Part shown: piece after piece, positions 1-9,617 of the stretch
How positions within the stretch are numbered: the first letter of the stretch is position 1
Layout of the letters: every line of letters starts with the position of its first letter
DNA from: a virus
Taxonomy: Duplodnaviria; Heunggongvirae; Uroviricota; Caudoviricetes
Virus record (IMG/VR): IMGVR_UViG_2531839668_000010
Span: 1 to 9,617 of that record
Length of the DNA: 9,617 bases
Strand: one strand, 5' to 3'
Program-made: the position numbers and the translations under genes
The notes under the pieces: model-generated
What the model was told of the DNA's origin: nothing
The model's database searches: none
The model's input: the letters and a program-made list of their open reading frames with translations, nothing else

Positions 1-219
1 TTACATCCACATAATTTGCTGCCCTGACGGCAACGGGTGCGGCCTTACGGCGTGGACTTCTCCCGGCTTCACGATGTATCGCTGTACCGACTCATAAGTG
101 ATGAACGTGGCGCTGCAATTCACGTTCTGACACTGGTGATAACGCTCTTTTGTCGTGTCAGTGATATAGCGACTTGTACGCGCATGTGCGGCATGCTGGC
201 ATAAAGGACAATGAAACAT
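1..219 (-). CDS. ogr: Ogr, zinc-finger late-gene transcriptional activator (P2 Ogr/Delta family), 72 aa
   Basis: Minus-strand ORF ending in TAA at 3..1. Translation from the ATG at 219..217 reads MFHCPLCQHAAHARTSRYITDTTKERYHQCQNVNCSATF...QQIMWM, which matches P2 Ogr as I recall it, including the CxxC-x22-CxxxxC zinc-binding cysteines. The ORF-track start at 294 is a TTG extension that runs through the predicted promoter, so I do not use it. A GGAAGAGG Shine-Dalgarno-like motif lies about 8 nt upstream of the ATG at 219. Confidence 0.9.
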   Translation of the reverse strand: MFHCPLCQHAAHARTSRYITDTTKERYHQCQNVNCSATFITYESVQRYIVKPGEVHAVRPHPLPSGQQIMWM

Positions 220-253
220 CGCGAGCACCTCTTCCGGTTTTGTTGATGGTGCC

Positions 254-282
254 ATTTTAGTTAATTTATCCTTATAAAACAA
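254..282 (-). promoter_or_regulatory. Putative sigma70 promoter for ogr (-35 TTGTTT, 17-bp spacer, -10 TAAAAT)
   Basis: Read on the minus strand: TTGTTT at 282..277, a 17-nt spacer, and TAAAAT at 259..254, about 35 nt upstream of the ogr ATG. This is a motif match only; ogr is known to have its own promoter in P2. Confidence 0.4.
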
Positions 283-300
283 ACAGATAAACAATAGACA

Positions 301-1464
301 TCACTCATCACCTTCTGTTTCGTACTCCACATCAGAAAGCCTGACCTCAAGCTCTAAGGACGTCGTGAAGCCGCTATTATTCAGAAAATGTGTCACCTTA
401 GTGATTGTCCAGTCCTGCTCGTCTATGACGCGCTTAAAGCCTGACACTTTAACCGGTGTTTCCGTGTAAATATCTGCCCGACCGGTAGCCAGGCTGATGG
501 AGAACTCCGCAACGCCCCGTTGCAGTTTATCCCACTTCGCCTGAGCGGCGCGCATGGCCTGCGCTTTCGTGGCATATACCGTGGTCAGGGCAAAAACGTT
601 GTCAGCCTCACCGGCCATGTATTCACCTTCACGCGCTTCCGGTACTTTAGGCGCTTTCTTCTGCCTGACCGGTTTCGCTTTCGGGTGCTCCAGTGCGCGC
701 AGGTGTTTCTCTTTCTTTTTGCGTTTCAGTTTTACCTTCTGCTTTTGAGGCTTCGGGTCTTTGGTGTGTAACCACTTTGCCGTTACGCCGGTGTAGGCTC
801 CACGGTCAGCAATCGCAAAATGATGGCGGTCGCCGTCGCTGCGGGTTATGGTGACCTGCGGGATTTTTTTACCGCTGGACGTCACCCCCTGCCCCGCTTT
901 GAGAAACAACAGTTTTCCCATTTTTACCGACACCTCACCGCCGTTGCGTTCAGCAAGGCGGGTCAGGAATTTTGCATCAGACTCCTGCGACTGGTCGATG
1001 TGCGGGATTTTAATTCCGGCCAGTGACGGAGCGACACTGGCTTCCAGCCTGTTACGGGAGGCTATCGCCTCAACAATCGCACCGAGCGTGGTGTCATGCC
1101 AGGAGCCTTCACGGCGGGAATTGAGCGTCCCGCGAAAATCTGCACTCCGGGCGCGGATGGTGACCACATCCGGAGCGCCCCGGTGTTCAACCTCATCAAC
1201 GGTAAATGTCCCTTTGCATACCAGGGCAAAACCTTTCCAGCCGATATAAACCGTCAGGACAGCGCCACGAACCGGCAGCCCGACCTGCCCGTCGGCATCG
1301 TTCAGTTCAATATCAAGCTGGTCAGCCTCAAAGCCCCGGTTATCCGTCAGGGTCATACTCATCAGACGGTCGCTGATATTGCCGGTAATATCCCTGCTGT
1401 CGAGCATCAGCATGTAATCCGGCGTCAGCGTACTGCCTGCATCAAATGTCAGCGCATCCAGCAT
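301..1464 (-). CDS. D: Phage tail protein D (P2 gpD, late control gene D family), 387 aa
   Basis: Full-length minus-strand ORF with ATG at 1464..1462 and stop at 303..301. Length and sequence (MLDALTFDAGSTLTPDYMLMLDSRDITGNISDRL...) match P2 gpD as I recall it. Its start overlaps the U stop (TAATG), indicating translational coupling, and it lies upstream of ogr as in P2. Confidence 0.9.
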   Translation of the reverse strand: MLDALTFDAGSTLTPDYMLMLDSRDITGNISDRLMSMTLTDNRGFEADQLDIELNDADGQVGLPVRGAVLTVYIGWKGFALVCKGTFTVDEVEHRGAPDVVTIRARSADFRGTLNSRREGSWHDTTLGAIVEAIASRNRLEASVAPSLAGIKIPHIDQSQESDAKFLTRLAERNGGEVSVKMGKLLFLKAGQGVTSSGKKIPQVTITRSDGDRHHFAIADRGAYTGVTAKWLHTKDPKPQKQKVKLKRKKKEKHLRALEHPKAKPVRQKKAPKVPEAREGEYMAGEADNVFALTTVYATKAQAMRAAQAKWDKLQRGVAEFSISLATGRADIYTETPVKVSGFKRVIDEQDWTITKVTHFLNNSGFTTSLELEVRLSDVEYETEGDE

Positions 1465-1943
1465 TATCCCGCCCCCGTCATACCCGTGAATTTAGTCGCC
1501 AGACTGCCAGCCTTACCGATGAGCGATTCCGCCTGTTTACCGATATCGCCATAAAGCGCGGCCAGTGATTCATCAACGCGGGTGAGTGACAGCGTAAAAT
1601 CAATTTTCCGGGGTGTGCCGTCTGCAAAGAAAATACTCCCTGTTTCACTCACCTTGCTGATGACATACATGCCGTAAATCATGCCCGTGCCATCCAGCAA
1701 CGGCCACGCCCGGCCTTCCTCTGCCATCAGTCTGAGCGTGGTCATCGTCAGCTTTCCGCCGGTCAGTTCAGGATAAAGCACACCGGCAAGCGTGATGTTT
1801 TCCTCACCCGCACCGAGAAACTGAAAGGCATCCCGTTTGCCGATACGGGAATTTGACGGCCAGCGATAATCTGATTCACGCTGCATGGTCTGGTGTGGCA
1901 GCGTCTGGCGCATAAAAACAAACATACCTAACGCGAGCATCAT
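1464..1943 (-). CDS. U: Phage tail protein U (P2 gpU), 159 aa
   Basis: Minus-strand ORF with ATG at 1943..1941 and TAA at 1466..1464 overlapping the D start. The length of 159 aa and the U-D-ogr synteny match P2. Confidence 0.85.
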   Translation of the reverse strand: MMLALGMFVFMRQTLPHQTMQRESDYRWPSNSRIGKRDAFQFLGAGEENITLAGVLYPELTGGKLTMTTLRLMAEEGRAWPLLDGTGMIYGMYVISKVSETGSIFFADGTPRKIDFTLSLTRVDESLAALYGDIGKQAESLIGKAGSLATKFTGMTGAG

Positions 1944-1944
1944 T

Positions 1945-2232
1945 TTTCGTTACACGCCGGAAATGAAAACCGCAATGGTGCTCAAGGCAAAAGACGTCAT
2001 CCGCCGTGGCTGTCTGGAATATGACGTCAGCGCCACCGACATCACCAGCTCGTTTATGGCTATCCGCAAGACCATGACCAGCAGCGGACGCAGCGCCACT
2101 TATGAGGCCAGCCGCAGCGAGGAAGCCAGCCACGCCGACCTCGCCTGGGCGACCATGCATGCCCTGTTAAATGAGCCACTCACCGCCGGTATCAGCACCC
2201 CGCTGACATCCACCATTCTGGAGTTTTACTGA
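1945..2232 (+). pseudogene. P: C-terminal remnant (~95 codons) of the terminase large/ATPase subunit gene P (P2 gpP), 5'-truncated
   Basis: A plus-strand frame is open from 1870 to TGA at 2230..2232, and that stop overlaps the Q start codon (TGATG), the coupled P-Q arrangement expected in P2. The sequence ...RSEEASHADLAWATMHALLNEPL resembles the C-terminal nuclease-domain end of large terminases. The frame cannot extend upstream of 1870 and the U start lies at 1943, so at most ~95 codons of P remain (P2 gpP is roughly 590 aa). The assignment rests on synteny and motif resemblance, not on an alignment. Confidence 0.5.
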
Positions 2233-3266
2233 TGAGCAAGAAAAAAGGGAAAACACCGCAGCCAGCGGTGAAAACAATGACCGCCAGCGCCCCGAAAATG
2301 GAGGCATTCACCTTTGGTGAGCCGGTGCCGGTACTCGACCGCCGTGACATTCTGGATTACGTCGAGTGCATCAGTAACGGCAGATGGTATGAGCCACCGG
2401 TCAGCTTTACCGGTCTGGCAAAAAGCCTGCGTGCTGCCGTGCATCACAGCTCACCGATTTACGTCAAACGCAATATTCTGGCCTCGACATTTCTCCCGCA
2501 CCCGTGGCTTTCCCAGCAGGATTTCAGCCGCTTTGTGCTGGATTTTCTGGTGTTCGGTAATGCGTTTCTGGAAAAGCGTTACAGCACCACCGGTAAGGTC
2601 ATCAGACTGGAAACCTCACCGGCAAAATATACCCGCCGTGGCGTGGAGGAGGATGTTTACTGGTGGGTGCCGTCCTTCAACGAGCCGACAGCTTTCACGC
2701 CCGGCTCCGTGTTTCACCTGCTGGAGCCGGATATTAATCAGGAGCTGTACGGCCTGCCGGAATATCTCAGCGCCCTTAATTCTGCCTGGCTGAATGAATC
2801 AGCCACACTGTTCCGCCGCAAGTATTACGAAAACGGCGCTCATGCCGGATACATCATGTACGTCACTGATGCCGTGCAGGATCGCAACGATATCGAAATG
2901 CTCCGCGAAAACATGGTGAAGTCGAAAGGCCGCAACAACTTTAAAAATCTGTTCCTCTATGCCCCACATGGGAAAGCCGACGGCATTAAAATTATCCCGC
3001 TCAGTGAGGTCGCAACGAAGGACGATTTTTTTAATATCAAAAAAGCCAGCGCCGCTGACCTGCTGGACGCGCACCGCATCCCCTTTCAGTTGATGGGAGG
3101 CAAGCCGGAGAACGTCGGGTCGCTGGGTGATATTGAGAAAGTGGCAAAGGTCTTTGTCCGCAATGAGCTTATCCCGTTACAGGACAGGATTCGGGAAATA
3201 AACGGCTGGCTCGGTCAGGAGGTCATCCGCTTTAAAAACTACTCACTGGACACTGACAACGACTGA
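2232..3266 (+). CDS. Q: Portal (capsid portal) protein, P2 gpQ, 344 aa
   Basis: Complete plus-strand ORF with ATG at 2232 and a GGAG motif 9 nt upstream. The sequence (MSKKKGKTPQPAVKTMTASAPKMEAFTFGEPVPVLDRRDILDYVECISNGRWYEPP...) and length match P2 gpQ as I recall it. It lies next to cos and is oriented away from it, as in P2. Confidence 0.9.
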   Translation: MSKKKGKTPQPAVKTMTASAPKMEAFTFGEPVPVLDRRDILDYVECISNGRWYEPPVSFTGLAKSLRAAVHHSSPIYVKRNILASTFLPHPWLSQQDFSRFVLDFLVFGNAFLEKRYSTTGKVIRLETSPAKYTRRGVEEDVYWWVPSFNEPTAFTPGSVFHLLEPDINQELYGLPEYLSALNSAWLNESATLFRRKYYENGAHAGYIMYVTDAVQDRNDIEMLRENMVKSKGRNNFKNLFLYAPHGKADGIKIIPLSEVATKDDFFNIKKASAADLLDAHRIPFQLMGGKPENVGSLGDIEKVAKVFVRNELIPLQDRIREINGWLGQEVIRFKNYSLDTDND

Positions 3267-3270
3267 ACAT

Positions 3271-3293
3271 CGCCGCCTGCGGGCGGCTTTTTT
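3271..3293 (+). terminator. Rho-independent terminator downstream of Q
   Basis: GC-rich hairpin GCCGCC-TGCG-GGCGGC (3272-3287) followed directly by a T6 run (3288-3293), 5 nt after the Q stop codon. Confidence 0.65.
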
Positions 3294-3435
3294 ACAACCC
3301 GCCATCACGCCCTCACACGCTCACCACCGCACAAAACAGCCCGCAGACACACCAACGCCCCGGCTAACAATCTAAACGCCATCACGACGCGCTCAGACGC
3401 TGAAAAAATAAAATCAGCACCACCGCCAGCGCGCA

Positions 3436-3454
3436 GTGCTTTCCCCGCCTCGCC
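3436..3454. other. P2-type cos site (19-nt cohesive-end sequence, joined form)
   Basis: The plus strand reads GTGCTTTCCCCGCCTCGCC, the reverse complement of the P2 19-nt cohesive end GGCGAGGCGGGGAAAGCAC as I recall it. It lies about 170 nt beyond the Q stop, the same relative position as at the P2 left end. Confidence 0.75.
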
Positions 3455-3541
3455 CGCCCGCTTCATGGGGCAGTTTGAATGCAGTTGAATCACTATCTTT
3501 AACCCGCACCAACACTACCTGAAGCTCATCAAAAAGATATT

Positions 3542-3580
3542 TTGAAACAAATGCATTATCATGCAACGTAACCATACAAT
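3542..3580 (+). promoter_or_regulatory. Candidate promoter region for the cargo ORF (TTGAAA -35-like at 3542-3547; TACAAT -10-like at 3575-3580)
   Basis: AT-rich region upstream of the cargo ATG at 3620 with individually good hexamers, but their spacing is not canonical. A strong AGGA ribosome-binding site lies at 3611-3614. Confidence 0.25.
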
Positions 3581-3619
3581 ATTGAGAATTGTGTTCTAGA
3601 AAAATCCAGAAGGAAAAAC

Positions 3620-4414
3620 ATGCAGATCAAAAAAGGAACAGTCTGGCATACTTACACAACCCAGTCACCAACATATGACAATGCGGAGGAAACTGCATCG
3701 CAATTAATCAAAACAGGTATGTTTTTGGCGATTTTAACCCCTGATAACACTTTTAAGTGTCTTTCAGGCTGTAATGTGTTATCAACAAAGTTATCAATGA
3801 AATACGAGAATAATGGAGTTAGCGTCAATTTGGGTGATGCTAATTTTTTAAACTCTCCCGGCTTATGCGATTTAACAATCCATTCATTCTACAATTGTAT
3901 CAACTTGAGACTATCAGAAAACAAACTATTCCATATCACAGAGCAATCATATTACAACAACATTATTTGTTGTCAAAAACCCATTTTATTTGGTTGCGGA
4001 GAAAATGAGTTTTTCTTAATTCCAATAATACGCCTATATCGAAATGGCATATCCCATATAACTTTCATCGACGAAGAACGTTATGATAATGAATTAAATT
4101 ATTTCATTGACACAAAAATAAATCTCCCTTTTAATGCCAGCAGTTCAATCATTGCCAGCACGGAGTATACAAACAGAGTCATTGAGCTTGACTTATCACC
4201 AATGAATTTGGTCCAGCGAGTTATAGCCAAGAGATTATTGTCAACACAAATCAAACAGGTGGAAGTAAAATCAAGAGATATATCTTGCGACAACTTAACA
4301 ATCAATGGAAAATATATTAACTACGCAAAAGAATTTGAACTACAAAATAGCTTAAGCGATATCGCTCGCACCACAATAGCAATAATTCACAACACATTAA
4401 GAAAAAAACACTAA
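3620..4414 (+). CDS. Hypothetical protein, 264 codons: N-terminal segment of a frameshift-split low-GC cargo ORF of unknown function
   Basis: ATG at 3620 preceded by AGGA with a 5-nt spacer. GC is about 30-40%, against about 55% in the flanking phage genes. I find no Walker A, HUH, reverse-transcriptase or other motif I recognise. The frame ends at TAA 4412-4414, just after an A7 run (4402-4408). Confidence 0.7.
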   Translation: MQIKKGTVWHTYTTQSPTYDNAEETASQLIKTGMFLAILTPDNTFKCLSGCNVLSTKLSMKYENNGVSVNLGDANFLNSPGLCDLTIHSFYNCINLRLSENKLFHITEQSYYNNIICCQKPILFGCGENEFFLIPIIRLYRNGISHITFIDEERYDNELNYFIDTKINLPFNASSSIIASTEYTNRVIELDLSPMNLVQRVIAKRLLSTQIKQVEVKSRDISCDNLTINGKYINYAKEFELQNSLSDIARTTIAIIHNTLRKKH

Positions 4415-5232
4415 AAGATATTTTATTTGGCAGAAAAACAACAGACTTCTATCATGGATGGCAAGGGAAACCTAATATTTATATTTTTAGCCATGACAAC
4501 CAAAAAAGCAACGCCAATAAAAATAGCAAATACAACAAACAATTAATATCTTCACTATTAAGCAAGAGCACTTTTTTTAATGATGAAAAAGACAAGCAAA
4601 ATCACATCGACCTCAGAGTATTTAATGACTTTAATTATTATTCAGAGCAAGGAGCAACCCTCACACTATGTTCAAAAAAAGTAGAATTTAAAAACATCAC
4701 AGATTCGTATTCCGAATCAAATATCATATGGGACAACCAAGTAAAAAGTGACCTGAGAGATTTTATATCTTTTTTTTACGAATCCAAAATAGAACAAGTC
4801 AAGAATGAGAACAACCATATTGGCCTAGCCACAACCCAAGAGGAAATCATTCAATTTGAGGAATGGTTAAGAGTCTTTTCAAAAAAATATGGAGAAATAC
4901 AAAACATTATATCCAACAACGTCCAGTCAAATGATTTAGAACTGGCTCGAAAGAACCTTGCCAAAATGTTAAAATCAAGAATGCAAGTTATAAAACTAAA
5001 AGATGCAAGCAAAAACGAAATAAGCAACAGGAATATTACTATAACGTTTGGCTTAGTTGCCTCAACATCTCTCTCACCTGTGATAACGAAACCACTCTTT
5101 GAAAACTCAGGTATTACCAAGATAATAAAACATCTTAATCTAGGTGGCTATACAGAAACCATTTATTATATTTTTTCCGCTATTTTTGTATCAGTAGTAT
5201 TATTGTTCATCAATAAACTCAACAGAAAATAA
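4408..5232 (+). CDS. Continuation of the cargo ORF in the -1 frame (~274 codons, no start codon of its own before 4966); predicted C-terminal transmembrane helix
   Basis: My manual translation shows this frame free of stop codons from 4351 to TAA at 5230-5232 (293 codons), in sequence where stops should be frequent. It contains no ATG, GTG or TTG until 4966, so the 88-aa ORF in the track (4966..5232) is only the tail of a longer coding frame. It overlaps the end of the upstream frame across 4351-4414. The C-terminus ...TIYYIFSAIFVSVVLLFINKL is a hydrophobic stretch of helix length. Confidence 0.6.
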   Translation, partial: TLKDILFGRKTTDFYHGWQGKPNIYIFSHDNQKSNANKNSKYNKQLISSLLSKSTFFNDEKDKQNHIDLRVFNDFNYYSEQGATLTLCSKKVEFKNITDSYSESNIIWDNQVKSDLRDFISFFYESKIEQVKNENNHIGLATTQEEIIQFEEWLRVFSKKYGEIQNIISNNVQSNDLELARKNLAKMLKSRMQVIKLKDASKNEISNRNITITFGLVASTSLSPVITKPLFENSGITKIIKHLNLGGYTETIYYIFSAIFVSVVLLFINKLNRK

Positions 5233-5764
5233 TCTCCTACCCCTGCGTTTATAAGTGGGGGTATAAATTACAAAATAGAACCTACATACCCATAACAAAA
5301 TAAATGATTTTTCATCAGAGGGCTTACACTCTCTTTGCACGCCAGTCACAACATCTTACTCTATTTCAAGGAACTATCTTCTTTACTGATGATTTTGTTT
5401 TCTTATACCATGCATTAACCCCCCAGGATTTTCCCGAAACCTCATAGCCATATTAGTGAATAACACCGCCATCAGACAAAATAAGCATCTATGACACATG
5501 AGAATTAATCCGCTTGACACAAGAAGCACCCACCCTGTGATTTTTGAAACATTAACTGATTATTTTTATTACTTGGCTCACGATGAGTTATACTTCGACA
5601 GAAGGTCACTCACAATGATTTTCTTAGCCAAATTAGATGCTCTTTTATATTTGAGTTAAATTACATGCTAACGATTCAATATAATTTAGTCTTCTATTTC
5701 AGTATACTATTGACCTTCTTCTGCCTTAGAGTCGCTCTGCATACCAAATTAGTTGTGTTTTTAC

Positions 5765-8041
5765 TCAAATGGATAACGAGAATCCCGGCCACTCATCAGC
5801 GACCGGATACGTGAATTTTTTCCCGTCGTAATTTACGGTTGCCCCACGCGCCAGCGCCTCAAGCTCCCATCGCTGAGGCCTGATACCATTCTGAACAAGG
5901 TCAACGCGGATACGGGTGATTTGCATTCGTTCCGACCGGGTCAGTCTGGCCGACGGTGCAATTTCATGTGTTTTTAACGGACTTCCGTTTCTTTGCTGAC
6001 GATTTGGTGTTTTCAGACCGTGTTTTAATGCTCCCCTGAGCGCCCTCACGACCTCCGGGTCATTCCATTCGATAACACCGTCATCAACCAGATTTAGCAC
6101 TGCTGCAGCGTGCTCAGAAGGTGTGGGAGCCGGTAACGAAGCATCACTACCGGTGAGCTTTCCACAGTTATTGACAGGACTCCGAGGCGCGGCGATGCCG
6201 CTTTTTAAAGTCAAAGGCTCAACGACCGGAACTTTCGGCACAATGCGCCAGTCCGTCGTTCTGGTGATATGAATATGACGCGCGCCGAGATGCGGCGCGT
6301 AAATGCCGACCACTCTCTCGACTTCTTCCTCGTACTCGTTAACGTCATCCGACAGACTACGGGCGACCCTGACAGTCTGACAATCGCGCGGGACATTTGC
6401 CCCGCCCTGCGCGCTGATATACAGCGCAAAATCACCACTGTCTGCGGCGGCGCGTGCAGCCTCGACGCGCTCGTCAAACTCATCAGCAATGCTGACGCCG
6501 CGAGGCAATTTGCGTAGTTCACGGTAAGCCCCCATTGTCGGCAGGCCAACCGTTTTAAATTGCGGAATGCGCCACGTTGACGCCCATGCGGTAACAGCCG
6601 CTGCAGTGTCTTTCAGCGGCCTGCCGGTGTCGTTATCGAGCTGACCATCCAGTGCATAGCCGTCGATGTTTTTTGAAATGTATTTCGCGATATATCCCGC
6701 AGCACCGCCCCGGTTAAGGTGTTTTGCCTGAAAACGGTTTCGCGCGGCTCCTCTTTCGTCGCCATCCTCTTTGAGCGCATAGCGACGCATGATTTCGATA
6801 ATCTGGTTACGCTGGCGTGGATGACAAAAAAGCATCATATGCCAGTGCGGCGTTCCGTCGTGGTGTGGCTCGACGACTCGCAAACCGTAGACCTGTAAAT
6901 CATTATCCTTGAATGCCGTGCGCATCAGGCTCCAGATACGGCAGAGATAACGCTGCGCATCCTTTGGATTAAATGCCTCATCGTTCCAGCCGTGATTAAG
7001 CTGAACGGTTTTACTTTCGCCTTTTCCGACCTGACGTGTCGGGTGATACTTTGACGGCGCGGTCAGCGTGATAAACATCCCCACATCACCCTCTGCGGCG
7101 GCGTAACGCTCAATACCGGCAATGGTGTTCATCAGCTCCATCCGGCGAATTTCAGGATTAGAAATACTGCCCATCACCTTACTGATAAGGTCGATGCGCT
7201 CGCCGGTTTCCCTGTTTTCAAGGTCACACGATTTAAGAAATTCCAGATTTGCCTGGCGGCGCGCACGCACATCACGAATGGCGTGTTTACTGGCATAAGG
7301 AGAACGGTCTTTATTGACCTCCCCGACAGCTATCAGTAACGCCTCATGCCAGCGCATACGCTGGCCTTTAAGCTGATGAGTCCACCACTCATCGTTAAAC
7401 AGGCGGGCAATGGCAGAATATGCCTGCCTCGTGGTCATCTGTCCTTTACGGTATTTTTTCCAGTAGAGCGGGGAAATATTGAAAGCACGTGCAGCGCCAG
7501 CAACATGACCATACAGGTGAGCCTGCGCCTCATCCGTAAACAGCGATTCTTTTTCACCATGCGCATCAACCCATGCATCGCAGAGTTCCTCATACATCAT
7601 GAAAAGCTGCGATGAGATACGGGCGGCAAACTTTTTCAGCTCCTTGTCATTCATTCCCGGCAGGCGCGCATAGTGGTCACGCTCTGCCAGAAACAGCAAC
7701 GACGCGTCGGTGTTCATTTCATGGCGCTGATTCACACGCTCAATGCGCGGCCATAAACGACACTGAAAAGTAGATGTGAGGAAATAAAACCCGTGCACCG
7801 GGCTTTTATTGCGCCGGATGTAGTCATAGCGTGAAGTAAACAGCGAGCGCAAAAAGTAAGGCAGGCGGTTAATCGTGGATAAAACACCTTGCACCTGACG
7901 CATCTCGTCACGTGTAAGAGGTCTTTCGCGCCCGACAGCCTCGCGTGGCGCGTTCCATGCATAAGCACCGGTAAACGCCTTACCGGTGCCTGCGGTAAAT
8001 GCTGACGGAGGGACAAAACGCCCGGAGACTTTAACGGCCAT
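5765..8041 (-). CDS. A: Replication initiation protein A (P2 gpA, HUH rolling-circle endonuclease), ~758 aa from the ATG at 8041
   Basis: Long minus-strand ORF ending in TAA at 5767..5765. It carries an HUH motif (PHWHMML, about nt 6830-6850) and paired tyrosines (GYIAKYIS, about nt 6680-6694), as expected for P2 gpA. The ORF track starts at a TTG at 8083 (772 aa); I prefer the in-frame ATG at 8041, which gives a length close to P2 gpA and a short overlap with the upstream ORF stop. Confidence 0.9.
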   Translation of the reverse strand: MAVKVSGRFVPPSAFTAGTGKAFTGAYAWNAPREAVGRERPLTRDEMRQVQGVLSTINRLPYFLRSLFTSRYDYIRRNKSPVHGFYFLTSTFQCRLWPRIERVNQRHEMNTDASLLFLAERDHYARLPGMNDKELKKFAARISSQLFMMYEELCDAWVDAHGEKESLFTDEAQAHLYGHVAGAARAFNISPLYWKKYRKGQMTTRQAYSAIARLFNDEWWTHQLKGQRMRWHEALLIAVGEVNKDRSPYASKHAIRDVRARRQANLEFLKSCDLENRETGERIDLISKVMGSISNPEIRRMELMNTIAGIERYAAAEGDVGMFITLTAPSKYHPTRQVGKGESKTVQLNHGWNDEAFNPKDAQRYLCRIWSLMRTAFKDNDLQVYGLRVVEPHHDGTPHWHMMLFCHPRQRNQIIEIMRRYALKEDGDERGAARNRFQAKHLNRGGAAGYIAKYISKNIDGYALDGQLDNDTGRPLKDTAAAVTAWASTWRIPQFKTVGLPTMGAYRELRKLPRGVSIADEFDERVEAARAAADSGDFALYISAQGGANVPRDCQTVRVARSLSDDVNEYEEEVERVVGIYAPHLGARHIHITRTTDWRIVPKVPVVEPLTLKSGIAAPRSPVNNCGKLTGSDASLPAPTPSEHAAAVLNLVDDGVIEWNDPEVVRALRGALKHGLKTPNRQQRNGSPLKTHEIAPSARLTRSERMQITRIRVDLVQNGIRPQRWELEALARGATVNYDGKKFTYPVADEWPGFSLSI

Positions 8042-8306
8042 ATGAGCCAAAAGCCTCTGAACAACGCTTGCTGAGTTGCTCAACCTGCGCGTTTAAATCA
8101 GCAAAAGATTTTGCGCTTCCGGTCAGAATATCGTGATGCATCAGGCCGGAAACGAGCTGGCCTAATTTCGGGTAATAACCAACCACCGCCAGCCATTCCT
8201 GACCGGCGTTTTTACCGCTTTCCGCTCTCTTTTTCTCGTGGAGAATAAACTGAAAGCTGTCACTGGTAACGACATAACGTTCGCCAATTTCAATACGAAT
8301 ACTCAT
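8031..8306 (-). CDS. Small early-operon protein of unknown function (P2 orf83-like position), 91 aa
   Basis: ATG at 8306..8304 overlaps the upstream gene's stop (ATGA). It sits immediately upstream of A in a tightly coupled operon, in the position of the small ORFs between B and A in P2. The specific orf number is not verified. Confidence 0.7.
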   Translation of the reverse strand: MSIRIEIGERYVVTSDSFQFILHEKKRAESGKNAGQEWLAVVGYYPKLGQLVSGLMHHDILTGSAKSFADLNAQVEQLSKRCSEAFGSYGR

Positions 8307-8527
8307 GCCGTTCTCCGGTAATGTTTGTTTTTTGCTTCAAAGACTGACTGACAGGAAACACAACGCGTGGCTGACGGATAAGCCGCACGACGGGCAGCAG
8401 GTATTGGCGCGTCACACTCTTCGCAAACCAGCGCAGAAACACCGCAATGTTTTACCCTTGCCGCGTTAATCTGGCGCTCCAGTAATTCAGCCTGTTGTTC
8501 CTGAATAAAATCTACGTTGTCCGGCAT
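8303..8527 (-). CDS. TraR/DksA-family C4 zinc-finger protein (P2 orf82-like), 74 aa
   Basis: Carries a CEEC-x17-CVSC four-cysteine motif typical of TraR/DksA C4 zinc fingers. Its start overlaps the upstream stop (TAATG). P2 has a TraR-like ORF at this position. Confidence 0.8.
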   Translation of the reverse strand: MPDNVDFIQEQQAELLERQINAARVKHCGVSALVCEECDAPIPAARRAAYPSATRCVSCQSVFEAKNKHYRRTA

Positions 8528-8829
8528 TACCAGCTCCTTTTGTCGTTCAGCTTCTTAAATTCATCAGCGCAATAACTGGCGAGTTCTGTCGTTAATTTTG
8601 TCAGTTCATCCACTGAGGAAATTTGCTTGTGGAATACAGCGCGTTTAACAAGTAAATTGACCACATCAGACAGGAGGTTTAATTCACTCTGATAAATCGC
8701 GATAACAGATTCAGTTATTTCGCGCTTCTCTTTATCAATACCAAGTTGAATAAGAGACAAATCACCATTTTTCATAACGGCGATTTTTAAGGCGTTATTC
8801 AGTAATACAACCGAACGAGAACAGGACAT
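8527..8829 (-). CDS. Small early-operon protein of unknown function (P2 orf81-like position), ~100 aa
   Basis: The ORF-track start at 8832 is a TTG. The ATG at 8829..8827 overlaps the upstream stop TGA (8831..8829) and is the likelier start. Confidence 0.65.
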   Translation of the reverse strand: MSCSRSVVLLNNALKIAVMKNGDLSLIQLGIDKEKREITESVIAIYQSELNLLSDVVNLLVKRAVFHKQISSVDELTKLTTELASYCADEFKKLNDKRSW

Positions 8830-9053
8830 CAAAGCACCTCCCCGCGAGACAATCCGATATTGTGAAATTTTTCCGACTCCTGACTGAGCAGCTCAACTAT
8901 CTCCACGCGGGATAACTCCGCCTTTGTGATGTGGCGAATCATGGCGTCAAGATGAGAAGAAAAGCGCGTCGCAGCGTCGGCCTGTGCTTCGGTTCTGGCC
9001 TGTTGCAGCAGTAATGCGTATTTACCGCACTGATTTTCAGAAACTGTATGCAT
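8829..9053 (-). CDS. Small early-operon protein of unknown function (P2 orf80-like position), 74 aa
   Basis: ATG at 9053..9051 with a GGAG motif about 9 nt upstream. It is the first gene after B in the operon. Confidence 0.65.
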
Positions 9054-9116
9054 GACTTTCTCCAGGCAAAAAGAAGCCCCGCACGATTAAGTGCGTTAAA
9101 AACTCTGGTTAATTAT

Positions 9117-9617
9117 TTAATGCAGATATTGCTCTGGTTTTACCGACGTCAGAATTGTCGGTGCATACTCAAACAGACTGAATAATTCACGTAATGCACG
9201 GAATAAAGCATCACGCCAGTAACATGATTCTTCATTAATTCGCCAGTACGGCTGATTGAATTCTTTTTCTGTCAATCCCGCATGCATAAATAAAGTACGA
9301 CGCTGACTGACTGTTAAAAAACTAATATATGCATACTCACTTGCGCCGACCTGACGGCGTTTTGAGAATGCGCCACGCAATTCATCAATTGCACAAACCA
9401 GTCGTTCACGTTCGACGTCGTTCATTTCTTCAAAACGCATCGTTGCGTGACGCTGTTTTAACTGCGCATGAAAGCAAACCGTTAGCCGTTCGCGCTCCAT
9501 CATGTGATTATAATAATCACATGTATCCTGCCAGCGAGGAACGGCAAGATGCTTACCAATTATCCGTCGCATAGCTGCTGGCTGTTTTTCAACGAGATTG
9601 AGCGTCATCACTGTCAT
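9117..9617 (-). CDS. B: Replication protein B (P2 gpB, helicase-loader-like), 166 aa
   Basis: Complete 166-aa minus-strand ORF whose ATG is the last three bases of the window. Length and sequence (MTVMTLNLVEKQPAAMRRIIGKHLAVPRWQDTC...) match P2 gpB as I recall it. It lies upstream of the small ORFs and A, as in the P2 early operon. Confidence 0.85.
   Translation of the reverse strand: MTVMTLNLVEKQPAAMRRIIGKHLAVPRWQDTCDYYNHMMERERLTVCFHAQLKQRHATMRFEEMNDVERERLVCAIDELRGAFSKRRQVGASEYAYISFLTVSQRRTLFMHAGLTEKEFNQPYWRINEESCYWRDALFRALRELFSLFEYAPTILTSVKPEQYLH

Follow-up and report, generated by a model that had tools for sequence, protein, structure and literature searches.

The window analysed here is a stretch of 9,617 nucleotides (positions 1 to 9,617 of the IMG/VR virus record IMGVR_UViG_2531839668_000010), which is a degraded P2-like prophage remnant of E. 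coli. Its cargo gene, which lies between the portal gene gpQ and the replication gene gpA, is interrupted by a change of frame at a run of seven adenines (A7), and both frames are parts of one 537-codon gene. It is probable that this interruption represents a genuine loss-of-function allele of a single prophage cargo gene, in which slippage shortened a run of eight adenines (A8) to A7, and that this event is recurrent and not programmed.

The original prediction, which was made on the letters of the window, described a 264-codon frame ending at the TAA at 4412-4414, right after the A7 run at 4402-4408, and a -1 frame open from 4351 to 5232 that offered no start codon until 4966, and attributed both frames to one gene of about 537 codons. 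These coordinates hold, and an intact protein of 537 amino acids (aa), WP_001165947.1, does exist. The -1 frame opens after the TAG at 4348-4350 and extends to the TAA at 5230-5232, comprising 293 sense codons, a length with a chance probability of ~7e-11 at the local GC content of 31.5% (probability of a stop of 0.077 per codon), and the longest open stretches in the other four frames of the region range from 29 to 98 codons. A separate second gene in the downstream frame was considered and ruled out, the first ATG, GTG or TTG being found at 4966, with no upstream ribosome-binding site.

The intact state of the gene was found in complete genomes. When 5,426 complete E. coli genomes were searched with megablast, the locus was recovered in 12, most of which carry it as a single 1614-nt coding sequence (CDS) for WP_001165947.1 (537 aa), as seen in L001 (E. 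coli O157:H16 98-3133) and L004. Each of the nine A8-allele loci that were retrieved from these complete genomes presented A8 at the tract (9/9); in the noisy chromosomal sequence of strain TUM11352 (L002), the G preceding the tract was also missing. The window and L001 aligned over 9300 nt with no mismatches and a single gap, corresponding to one A of the tract, which places the break within the homopolymer as had been predicted, and restoring this A gave a protein identical to WP_001165947.1 (P0001). When the gene was rebuilt with varied tract lengths, A5, A8 and A11 were the only ones in frame, and the A8 protein was identical to the intact one, while A6 and A9 resulted in truncations of 284 and 285 aa, respectively. 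Since the fetched intact loci carry A8, the event is a 1-nt deletion, from A8 to A7. The alternative of a 1-nt insertion into an ancestral A6 tract did not survive this comparison, given that the intact tract is A8, that A6 leads to the 284-aa truncation, and that no A6 allele was found in a collection of 15 billion proteins. The comparison of tract lengths at homologous loci, proposed in the original prediction, did reveal a difference in length and a single uninterrupted open reading frame (ORF), but the intact tract was A8, and not A6. Intact single-ORF orthologues together with one indel that accounts for the disruption are the features of a recent frameshift pseudogene.

Other lesions and copies were observed at the same locus. 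In L003 and L008 (E. coli C7 and C3), another homopolymer, equivalent to positions 4881-4887 of the window, was expanded from A7 to A8, generating the 438-aa truncated product WP_249531605.1. Strain TUM11352 harbours a P2-like phage with this cargo twice, on L005 (NZ_CP134387.1, the 'plasmid' pMTY11352_3, of 88 kb) and on the chromosome, where the copy in L002 contains numerous homopolymer indels and has several genes marked as frameshifted, a pattern that resembles assembly noise.

In the favoured explanation, replication slippage would have shortened the A8 run to A7, and translation would then stop three codons later, releasing a 264-aa N-terminal fragment deprived of the conserved C-terminal half and of the membrane anchor. 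The same change would have arisen several times in nature, where an expansion to A9 is found as well. In public collections, the exact 264-aa product was found on 23 contigs and the exact intact protein on 369. Ten A7 loci were fetched, three of which share the window's prophage remnant beside pflB and are 100% identical to the window over 6.9-9.6 kb, with no other indel (GCA_000194645.2, GCA_013037185.1 and GCA_025718335.1), and the remaining seven are placed in more complete P2-like prophage contexts, ~2% different from the window. The A7 tract was observed on four gene haplotypes, distinguished by single-nucleotide polymorphisms (SNPs) at 4159, 4452, 4467, 4527, 5040 and 5139, with A8 counterparts for three of the four, and the A7 alleles displayed no further indel in the gene and no secondary downstream lesion. 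These comparisons altogether indicate that A7 is a real allele, which has most probably arisen more than once.

The behaviour of the other homopolymers of the gene was assessed by predicting the +/-1 products of every run of at least 6 nt and looking them up as exact sequences; an A6 run near the 5′ end of the gene was left out, its products being too short for look-up. The -1 and +1 (A9) variants of the focal A8 tract (gene nt 783) were found on 23 and 11 contigs, respectively, compared with 2 and 2 for the T8 run (nt 1152, at 4770-4777 of the window) and 1 and 2 for an A7 run (nt 1263). At two T6 runs (nt 225 and nt 1553), the -1 variant was found on no contig and the +1 variant on 1 and 2 contigs, respectively, and neither variant was found for the T7 (nt 954), A7 (nt 1056) and A6 (nt 884) runs. 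No A5, A6, A10 or A11 version of the focal tract was present in the 15-billion-protein collection. The focal tract is the dominant indel site of the gene, and both lengths that would turn it OFF, A7 and A9, exist.

An artefact of sequencing or assembly, in which the true genome would be A8 and the missing A a homopolymer under-call, is quite unlikely. The sole difference from L001 is indeed one base in a homopolymer, and long-read or older assemblies of the locus do show homopolymer errors, many of them in L002 and, in L014, with split terminase and gpA genes. However, the identity of the window to three separately deposited assemblies, the occurrence of A7 on three further haplotypes, and the fact that the A7 loci carry no indel at the gene's other tracts all stand against this explanation, and they make a private homopolymer error, also raised by the original prediction, unlikely. 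Nevertheless, some points weigh against a genuine and recurrent loss-of-function allele. Some of the A7 assemblies may contain a platform artefact, and the assembly that carries the A7 locus L014 is noisy, with further genes split. A single project contributed many of the 23 A7 contigs, which may be clonal, and in terms of independent events (at least 4-5 for A7, at most 4 for T8) A7 does not significantly exceed the T8 tract. In addition, the cargo module is nearly invariant among diverged phage backbones, so that some of the sharing of A7 could reflect recombination instead of recurrent mutation. Finally, location is the sole basis for the function proposed for the protein, and thus for speaking of a phenotypic 'loss of function'.

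It was also considered whether A8 has been kept because reversible slippage between A7, A8 and A9 toggles, in lysogens, a costly or self-toxic membrane-acting defence protein, which would make the gene an ON/OFF contingency locus; this is unlikely, although several observations are consistent with it. Both OFF lengths are found in nature, and variants of +/-1 were the only ones seen; A7 coexists with A8 on several haplotypes; the downstream sequence is undecayed in every OFF allele; A8 occupies the same codons in homologues of 75%, 73% and 50% identity; and, in a relative of 33% identity, a T8 run at nearly the same residue interrupts the gene. On the other hand, synonymous-codon shuffles generated a run of at least A8 in the linker 53% of the time, given (L/R)KKT and the codon usage of the gene, so the tract is as codon usage predicts (P ~0.53) and not longer. 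Across the nine homologues examined, the tract was A8 in four (the intact E. coli allele included), A7 in a fifth, and absent in the other four, where the longest linker run was of 3-5 nt. Because A8 is expected from codon usage and the tract is short in four of nine homologues, there is no evidence in these sequences of selection on the tract. Moreover, A8 is short for a bacterial phase-variation tract, the lack of a significant excess over the T8 tract applies here as well, and the complete-genome loci that were fetched showed A8 throughout. Apart from the coexistence of A7, A8 and A9, there is no positive support for phase variation. Slippage that yields a trickle of full-length protein from OFF alleles, within an A8 switch of this uncharacterised family, is equally improbable. 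The phase-variable restriction-modification systems of Haemophilus, Neisseria, Helicobacter and Campylobacter are defence genes driven by homopolymers, and they resemble the present case in having, at a defence locus, a coding mononucleotide run with ON (here A8) and OFF (here A7 and A9) lengths. In contrast to them, the run described here is a poly-A of 8 nt, expected from codon usage and unconserved across the family. E. coli is not known for homopolymer phase variation.

Programmed recoding, in which A7 would be the designed form and a fixed proportion of full-length protein to 264-aa product would be achieved through -1 ribosomal frameshifting or slippage during transcription, is highly improbable and is largely refuted by the orthologues. 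The heptamer A_AAA_AAA at 4402-4408 is in the correct zero-frame register (codons AGA AAA AAA), and its -1 slip product, ...RKK-TLKDILFGRK..., matches the intact homologue over all 537 residues; the register and the junction are those given in the original prediction. Stand-alone homologues of the C-terminal half, which occur in the wider family, would also be compatible with recoding. However, the majority allele is a single ORF, and the 24 aligned homologues (33-77% identity), from Escherichia, Klebsiella, Enterobacter, Lelliottia, Serratia, Pantoea and Citrobacter, are all uninterrupted ORFs of ~535-540 aa, gapless across the junction, so that no orthologues encoding two separate proteins were found. 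Likewise, a profile search of 1.84 billion representatives returned 239 relatives, and most of the 150 listed are full-length in one stretch (~510-590 aa). No downstream stimulatory structure had been noticed in the original prediction, and folding was in fact no better than that of shuffled sequences (z of -0.23 for 4409-4490 and +0.24 for 4360-4560); no Shine-Dalgarno (SD)-like element (GGAGG or AGGA) was seen within 20 nt upstream of the heptamer. Thus, among the elements of a -1 frameshift cassette, the slippery heptamer is present, but the stimulator and a conserved two-frame layout are lacking, and the long A/T run conserved with a split ORF that characterises transcriptional-slippage sites is not found either, the run here being A7 and the orthologues unsplit. 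In E. coli, heptamers without stimulators promote frameshifting at 2-10x above a background of ~0.055%, well under 1% (PMC4066793), and bacterial transcriptional slippage was reported for runs of 9, or 8 in some organisms, which A7 does not reach (PMC1088944). The poor folding of the C-terminal half modelled alone also argues against two independent products.

The single-ORF homologues, the absence of RNA structure, the weakness of unstimulated heptamers and a run shorter than those reported suggest that recoding is not part of the design here and that just a weak, adventitious rescue is plausible. Since a -1 slip or a transcript with one additional A recreates the wild-type protein exactly, the A7 allele may be slightly leaky. 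At most, rare +1 A transcriptional slippage or an unstimulated -1 slip on A_AAA_AAA would restore the wild-type protein at a low level, estimated at ~1% or less for the ribosomal route. Frameshifts in A runs are known to be partly rescued by transcriptional slippage (PMC1088944). In apoB (A8 run) and in disrupted E. coli ORFs, described by Baranov et al. in 2005 (PMC1088944), a 1-nt change in an A run also splits the gene, and the exact wild-type protein would likewise be recovered if RNA polymerase inserted one more A or if the ribosome slipped by -1; here, in contrast, A7 is below 9 (8 in some organisms), so that any rescue is expected to be weak. Similarly, in dnaX (A_AAA_AAG) and in the IS911/IS3 transposases, a slippery lysine heptamer in the X_XXY_YYZ register joins overlapping frames, but in the present gene no SD-like or structural stimulator was seen, the two-frame layout is unconserved, and the heptamer ends in A and not in G.

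The intact protein was modelled by AF2 with reasonable confidence, with a predicted local distance difference test (pLDDT) score of 79 and a predicted template modelling (pTM) score of 0.77. In this model, the N-terminal region is alpha/beta, long helices start at about residue 366, and the C-terminus presents a hydrophobic helix (residues 513-532) with a basic tail after it. Ahead of this helix, a conserved and moderately hydrophobic segment, ITITFGLVASTSLSPVITKP (residues 472-492), is kept in distant homologues. Modelled alone, the C-terminal half reached a pLDDT of 56, compared with 79 for the full-length protein, and this poor model was not used for fold searching; the two halves seem to be interdependent in these models, which would argue against the 264-aa fragment as a designed product. 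Searches with the intact protein gave no match in PADLOC, in NCBIfam or in a profile search of the PDB, and only sub-threshold noise in Pfam; nothing significant resulted from fold searches with the predicted structure, no Pfam domain was above threshold in ten distant family members, and a phage database search returned no match. PHROG 24946 was matched, a group of unknown function. None of these searches related the protein to a known defence family. In Table S5 of Rousset et al. 2022, WP_001165947 figures as a 'hypothetical' P2-hotspot locus of one gene, and it is absent from their table of tested systems (PMC9122126). Judged by location and predicted topology only, the cargo product would be a membrane-acting phage-exclusion or defence protein.

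The family extends to other hosts. Five of the eight homologue loci fetched were between or beside the portal gene and gpA, a slot also used by homologues in Klebsiella, Pantoea, Serratia and other hosts; among the others, one was beside phage tail genes, and a Serratia one was chromosomal, beside a portal remnant. In the wider family, P0099, P0113, P0118, P0121 and other proteins of ~266-340 aa match the C-terminal half alone (profile positions ~265-535); they start with a Met shortly ahead of a conserved GKP motif and may be either stand-alone versions or fragments of split genes. In L024 (metagenome contig ERZ27247416 k141_259127), a distant homologue at 1004-2615, which shares 90% identity with the Citrobacter-type P0040, likewise has its frame interrupted, in this case at a T8 run (L024 1764-1771) at about residue 258-260, nearly the same protein position, and gene calling divides its N-terminal part into two further fragments.

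With regard to the surroundings of the gene, the gene order was taken from the RefSeq annotation of the near-identical L001, and consists of late control D, gpU, a terminase C-terminal fragment, gpQ, the cargo gene, gpA and early genes (Table 1). An exact match to the P2 cos cohesive-end sequence, GGCGAGGCGGGGAAAGCAC, was found in the window, where 0.01 matches would be expected by chance. The GC content of the cargo region is 30-36%, versus 50-59% in the flanks. The cargo module (~3432-5830, from cos to the 3′ end of gpA) is nearly invariant among P2-like prophages, with 0-2 SNPs per 200 bp, unlike the portal and gpA genes of the same prophages, which diverge by 2-5%, and this difference indicates a recent exchange of the module between phage backbones. 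The interval gpA-cos-gpQ is a published defence hotspot of P2-like phages, in which P2 itself carries old and tin (Rousset et al. 2022, PMC9122126). The positions of portal, cos, cargo and gpA correspond to those of this hotspot, and the cargo is, as in the hotspot, a variable, compositionally distinct and exchanged module; the disrupted gene is a single-gene cargo of the hotspot, beside cos. Like the P2 old and tin genes and the systems of Rousset et al. 2022 (PMC9122126), it is found between cos/gpQ and gpA, has low GC and is swapped between backbones, but its protein has no similarity to old, tin or any PADLOC model.

Table 1. Positions in the window of the disrupted cargo gene, its parts and the flanking elements
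Feature	Position	Strand	Remarks
Whole disrupted cargo gene, A7 allele of the 537-aa gene (WP_001165947.1)	3620..5232	+	One A fewer than the intact allele
AGGA-type ribosome-binding site	~3611-3614	+	Ahead of the upstream frame
Upstream frame, 264 codons and TAA 4412-4414, truncated product P0002 ending ...RKKH	3620..4414	+	Exact 264-aa protein in public collections
A7 homopolymer (A8 when intact), site of the 1-nt deletion, A_AAA_AAA heptamer in -1 register	4402..4408	+	Flanked by G4401 and C4409
Downstream gene part in the -1 frame, up to TAA 5230-5232, corresponding to intact-protein residues 264-537	4408..5232	+	Gapless alignment to 24 homologues
Predicted C-terminal transmembrane helix, residues 513-532, then basic tail	5155..5214	+	Hydropathy 2.1 over 19 residues; absent from the truncated product
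Portal protein gpQ, 344 aa	2232..3266	+	L001 RefSeq annotation; Pfam Phage_portal; left flank of the hotspot
P2 cos cohesive-end sequence	3436..3454	-	Exact match; left edge of the conserved cargo module
Replication endonuclease gpA, 758 aa	5765..8041	-	RefSeq annotation; Pfam Phage_GPA; right flank of the hotspot

Outside the module, the late control gene D (301-1464, - strand) and the tail gene gpU (1464-1943, - strand) directly abut the C-terminal terminase fragment (~1948-2232, + strand), and so most late genes have been deleted or rearranged, leaving the prophage as a remnant. The same junction of D, gpU and terminase fragment, beside ogrK and pflB, is also present in L001, L012, L013 and L016. 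Between the cargo stop and the gpA stop, a ~530-bp AT-rich stretch (5233-5764), conserved within the module, has no annotated gene and a 53-aa ORF (5498-5659) as its sole content; an Rfam scan of the whole window at the gathering threshold gave no matches, this stretch included.

The A7 allele is an ordinary but recurrent homopolymer frameshift mutation, and its recognition corrects the annotation of the locus, which contains a single gene whose intact state is A8, instead of two genes; database entries for a '264-aa hypothetical protein' correspond to truncated alleles. The family to which it belongs is uncharacterised, comprises 239 cluster representatives and matches no known domain or fold, which makes it a sensible candidate for a novel membrane-acting protein against phages. 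Matched ON and OFF alleles, one base apart in the population, provide a natural experiment on the function and the cost of the gene, and they allow the claimed rarity of defence pseudogenes in P2 hotspots (PMC13586616) to be tested. If the switch interpretation were true, the gene would represent a phase-variable, phage-borne immunity gene in an enterobacterium.
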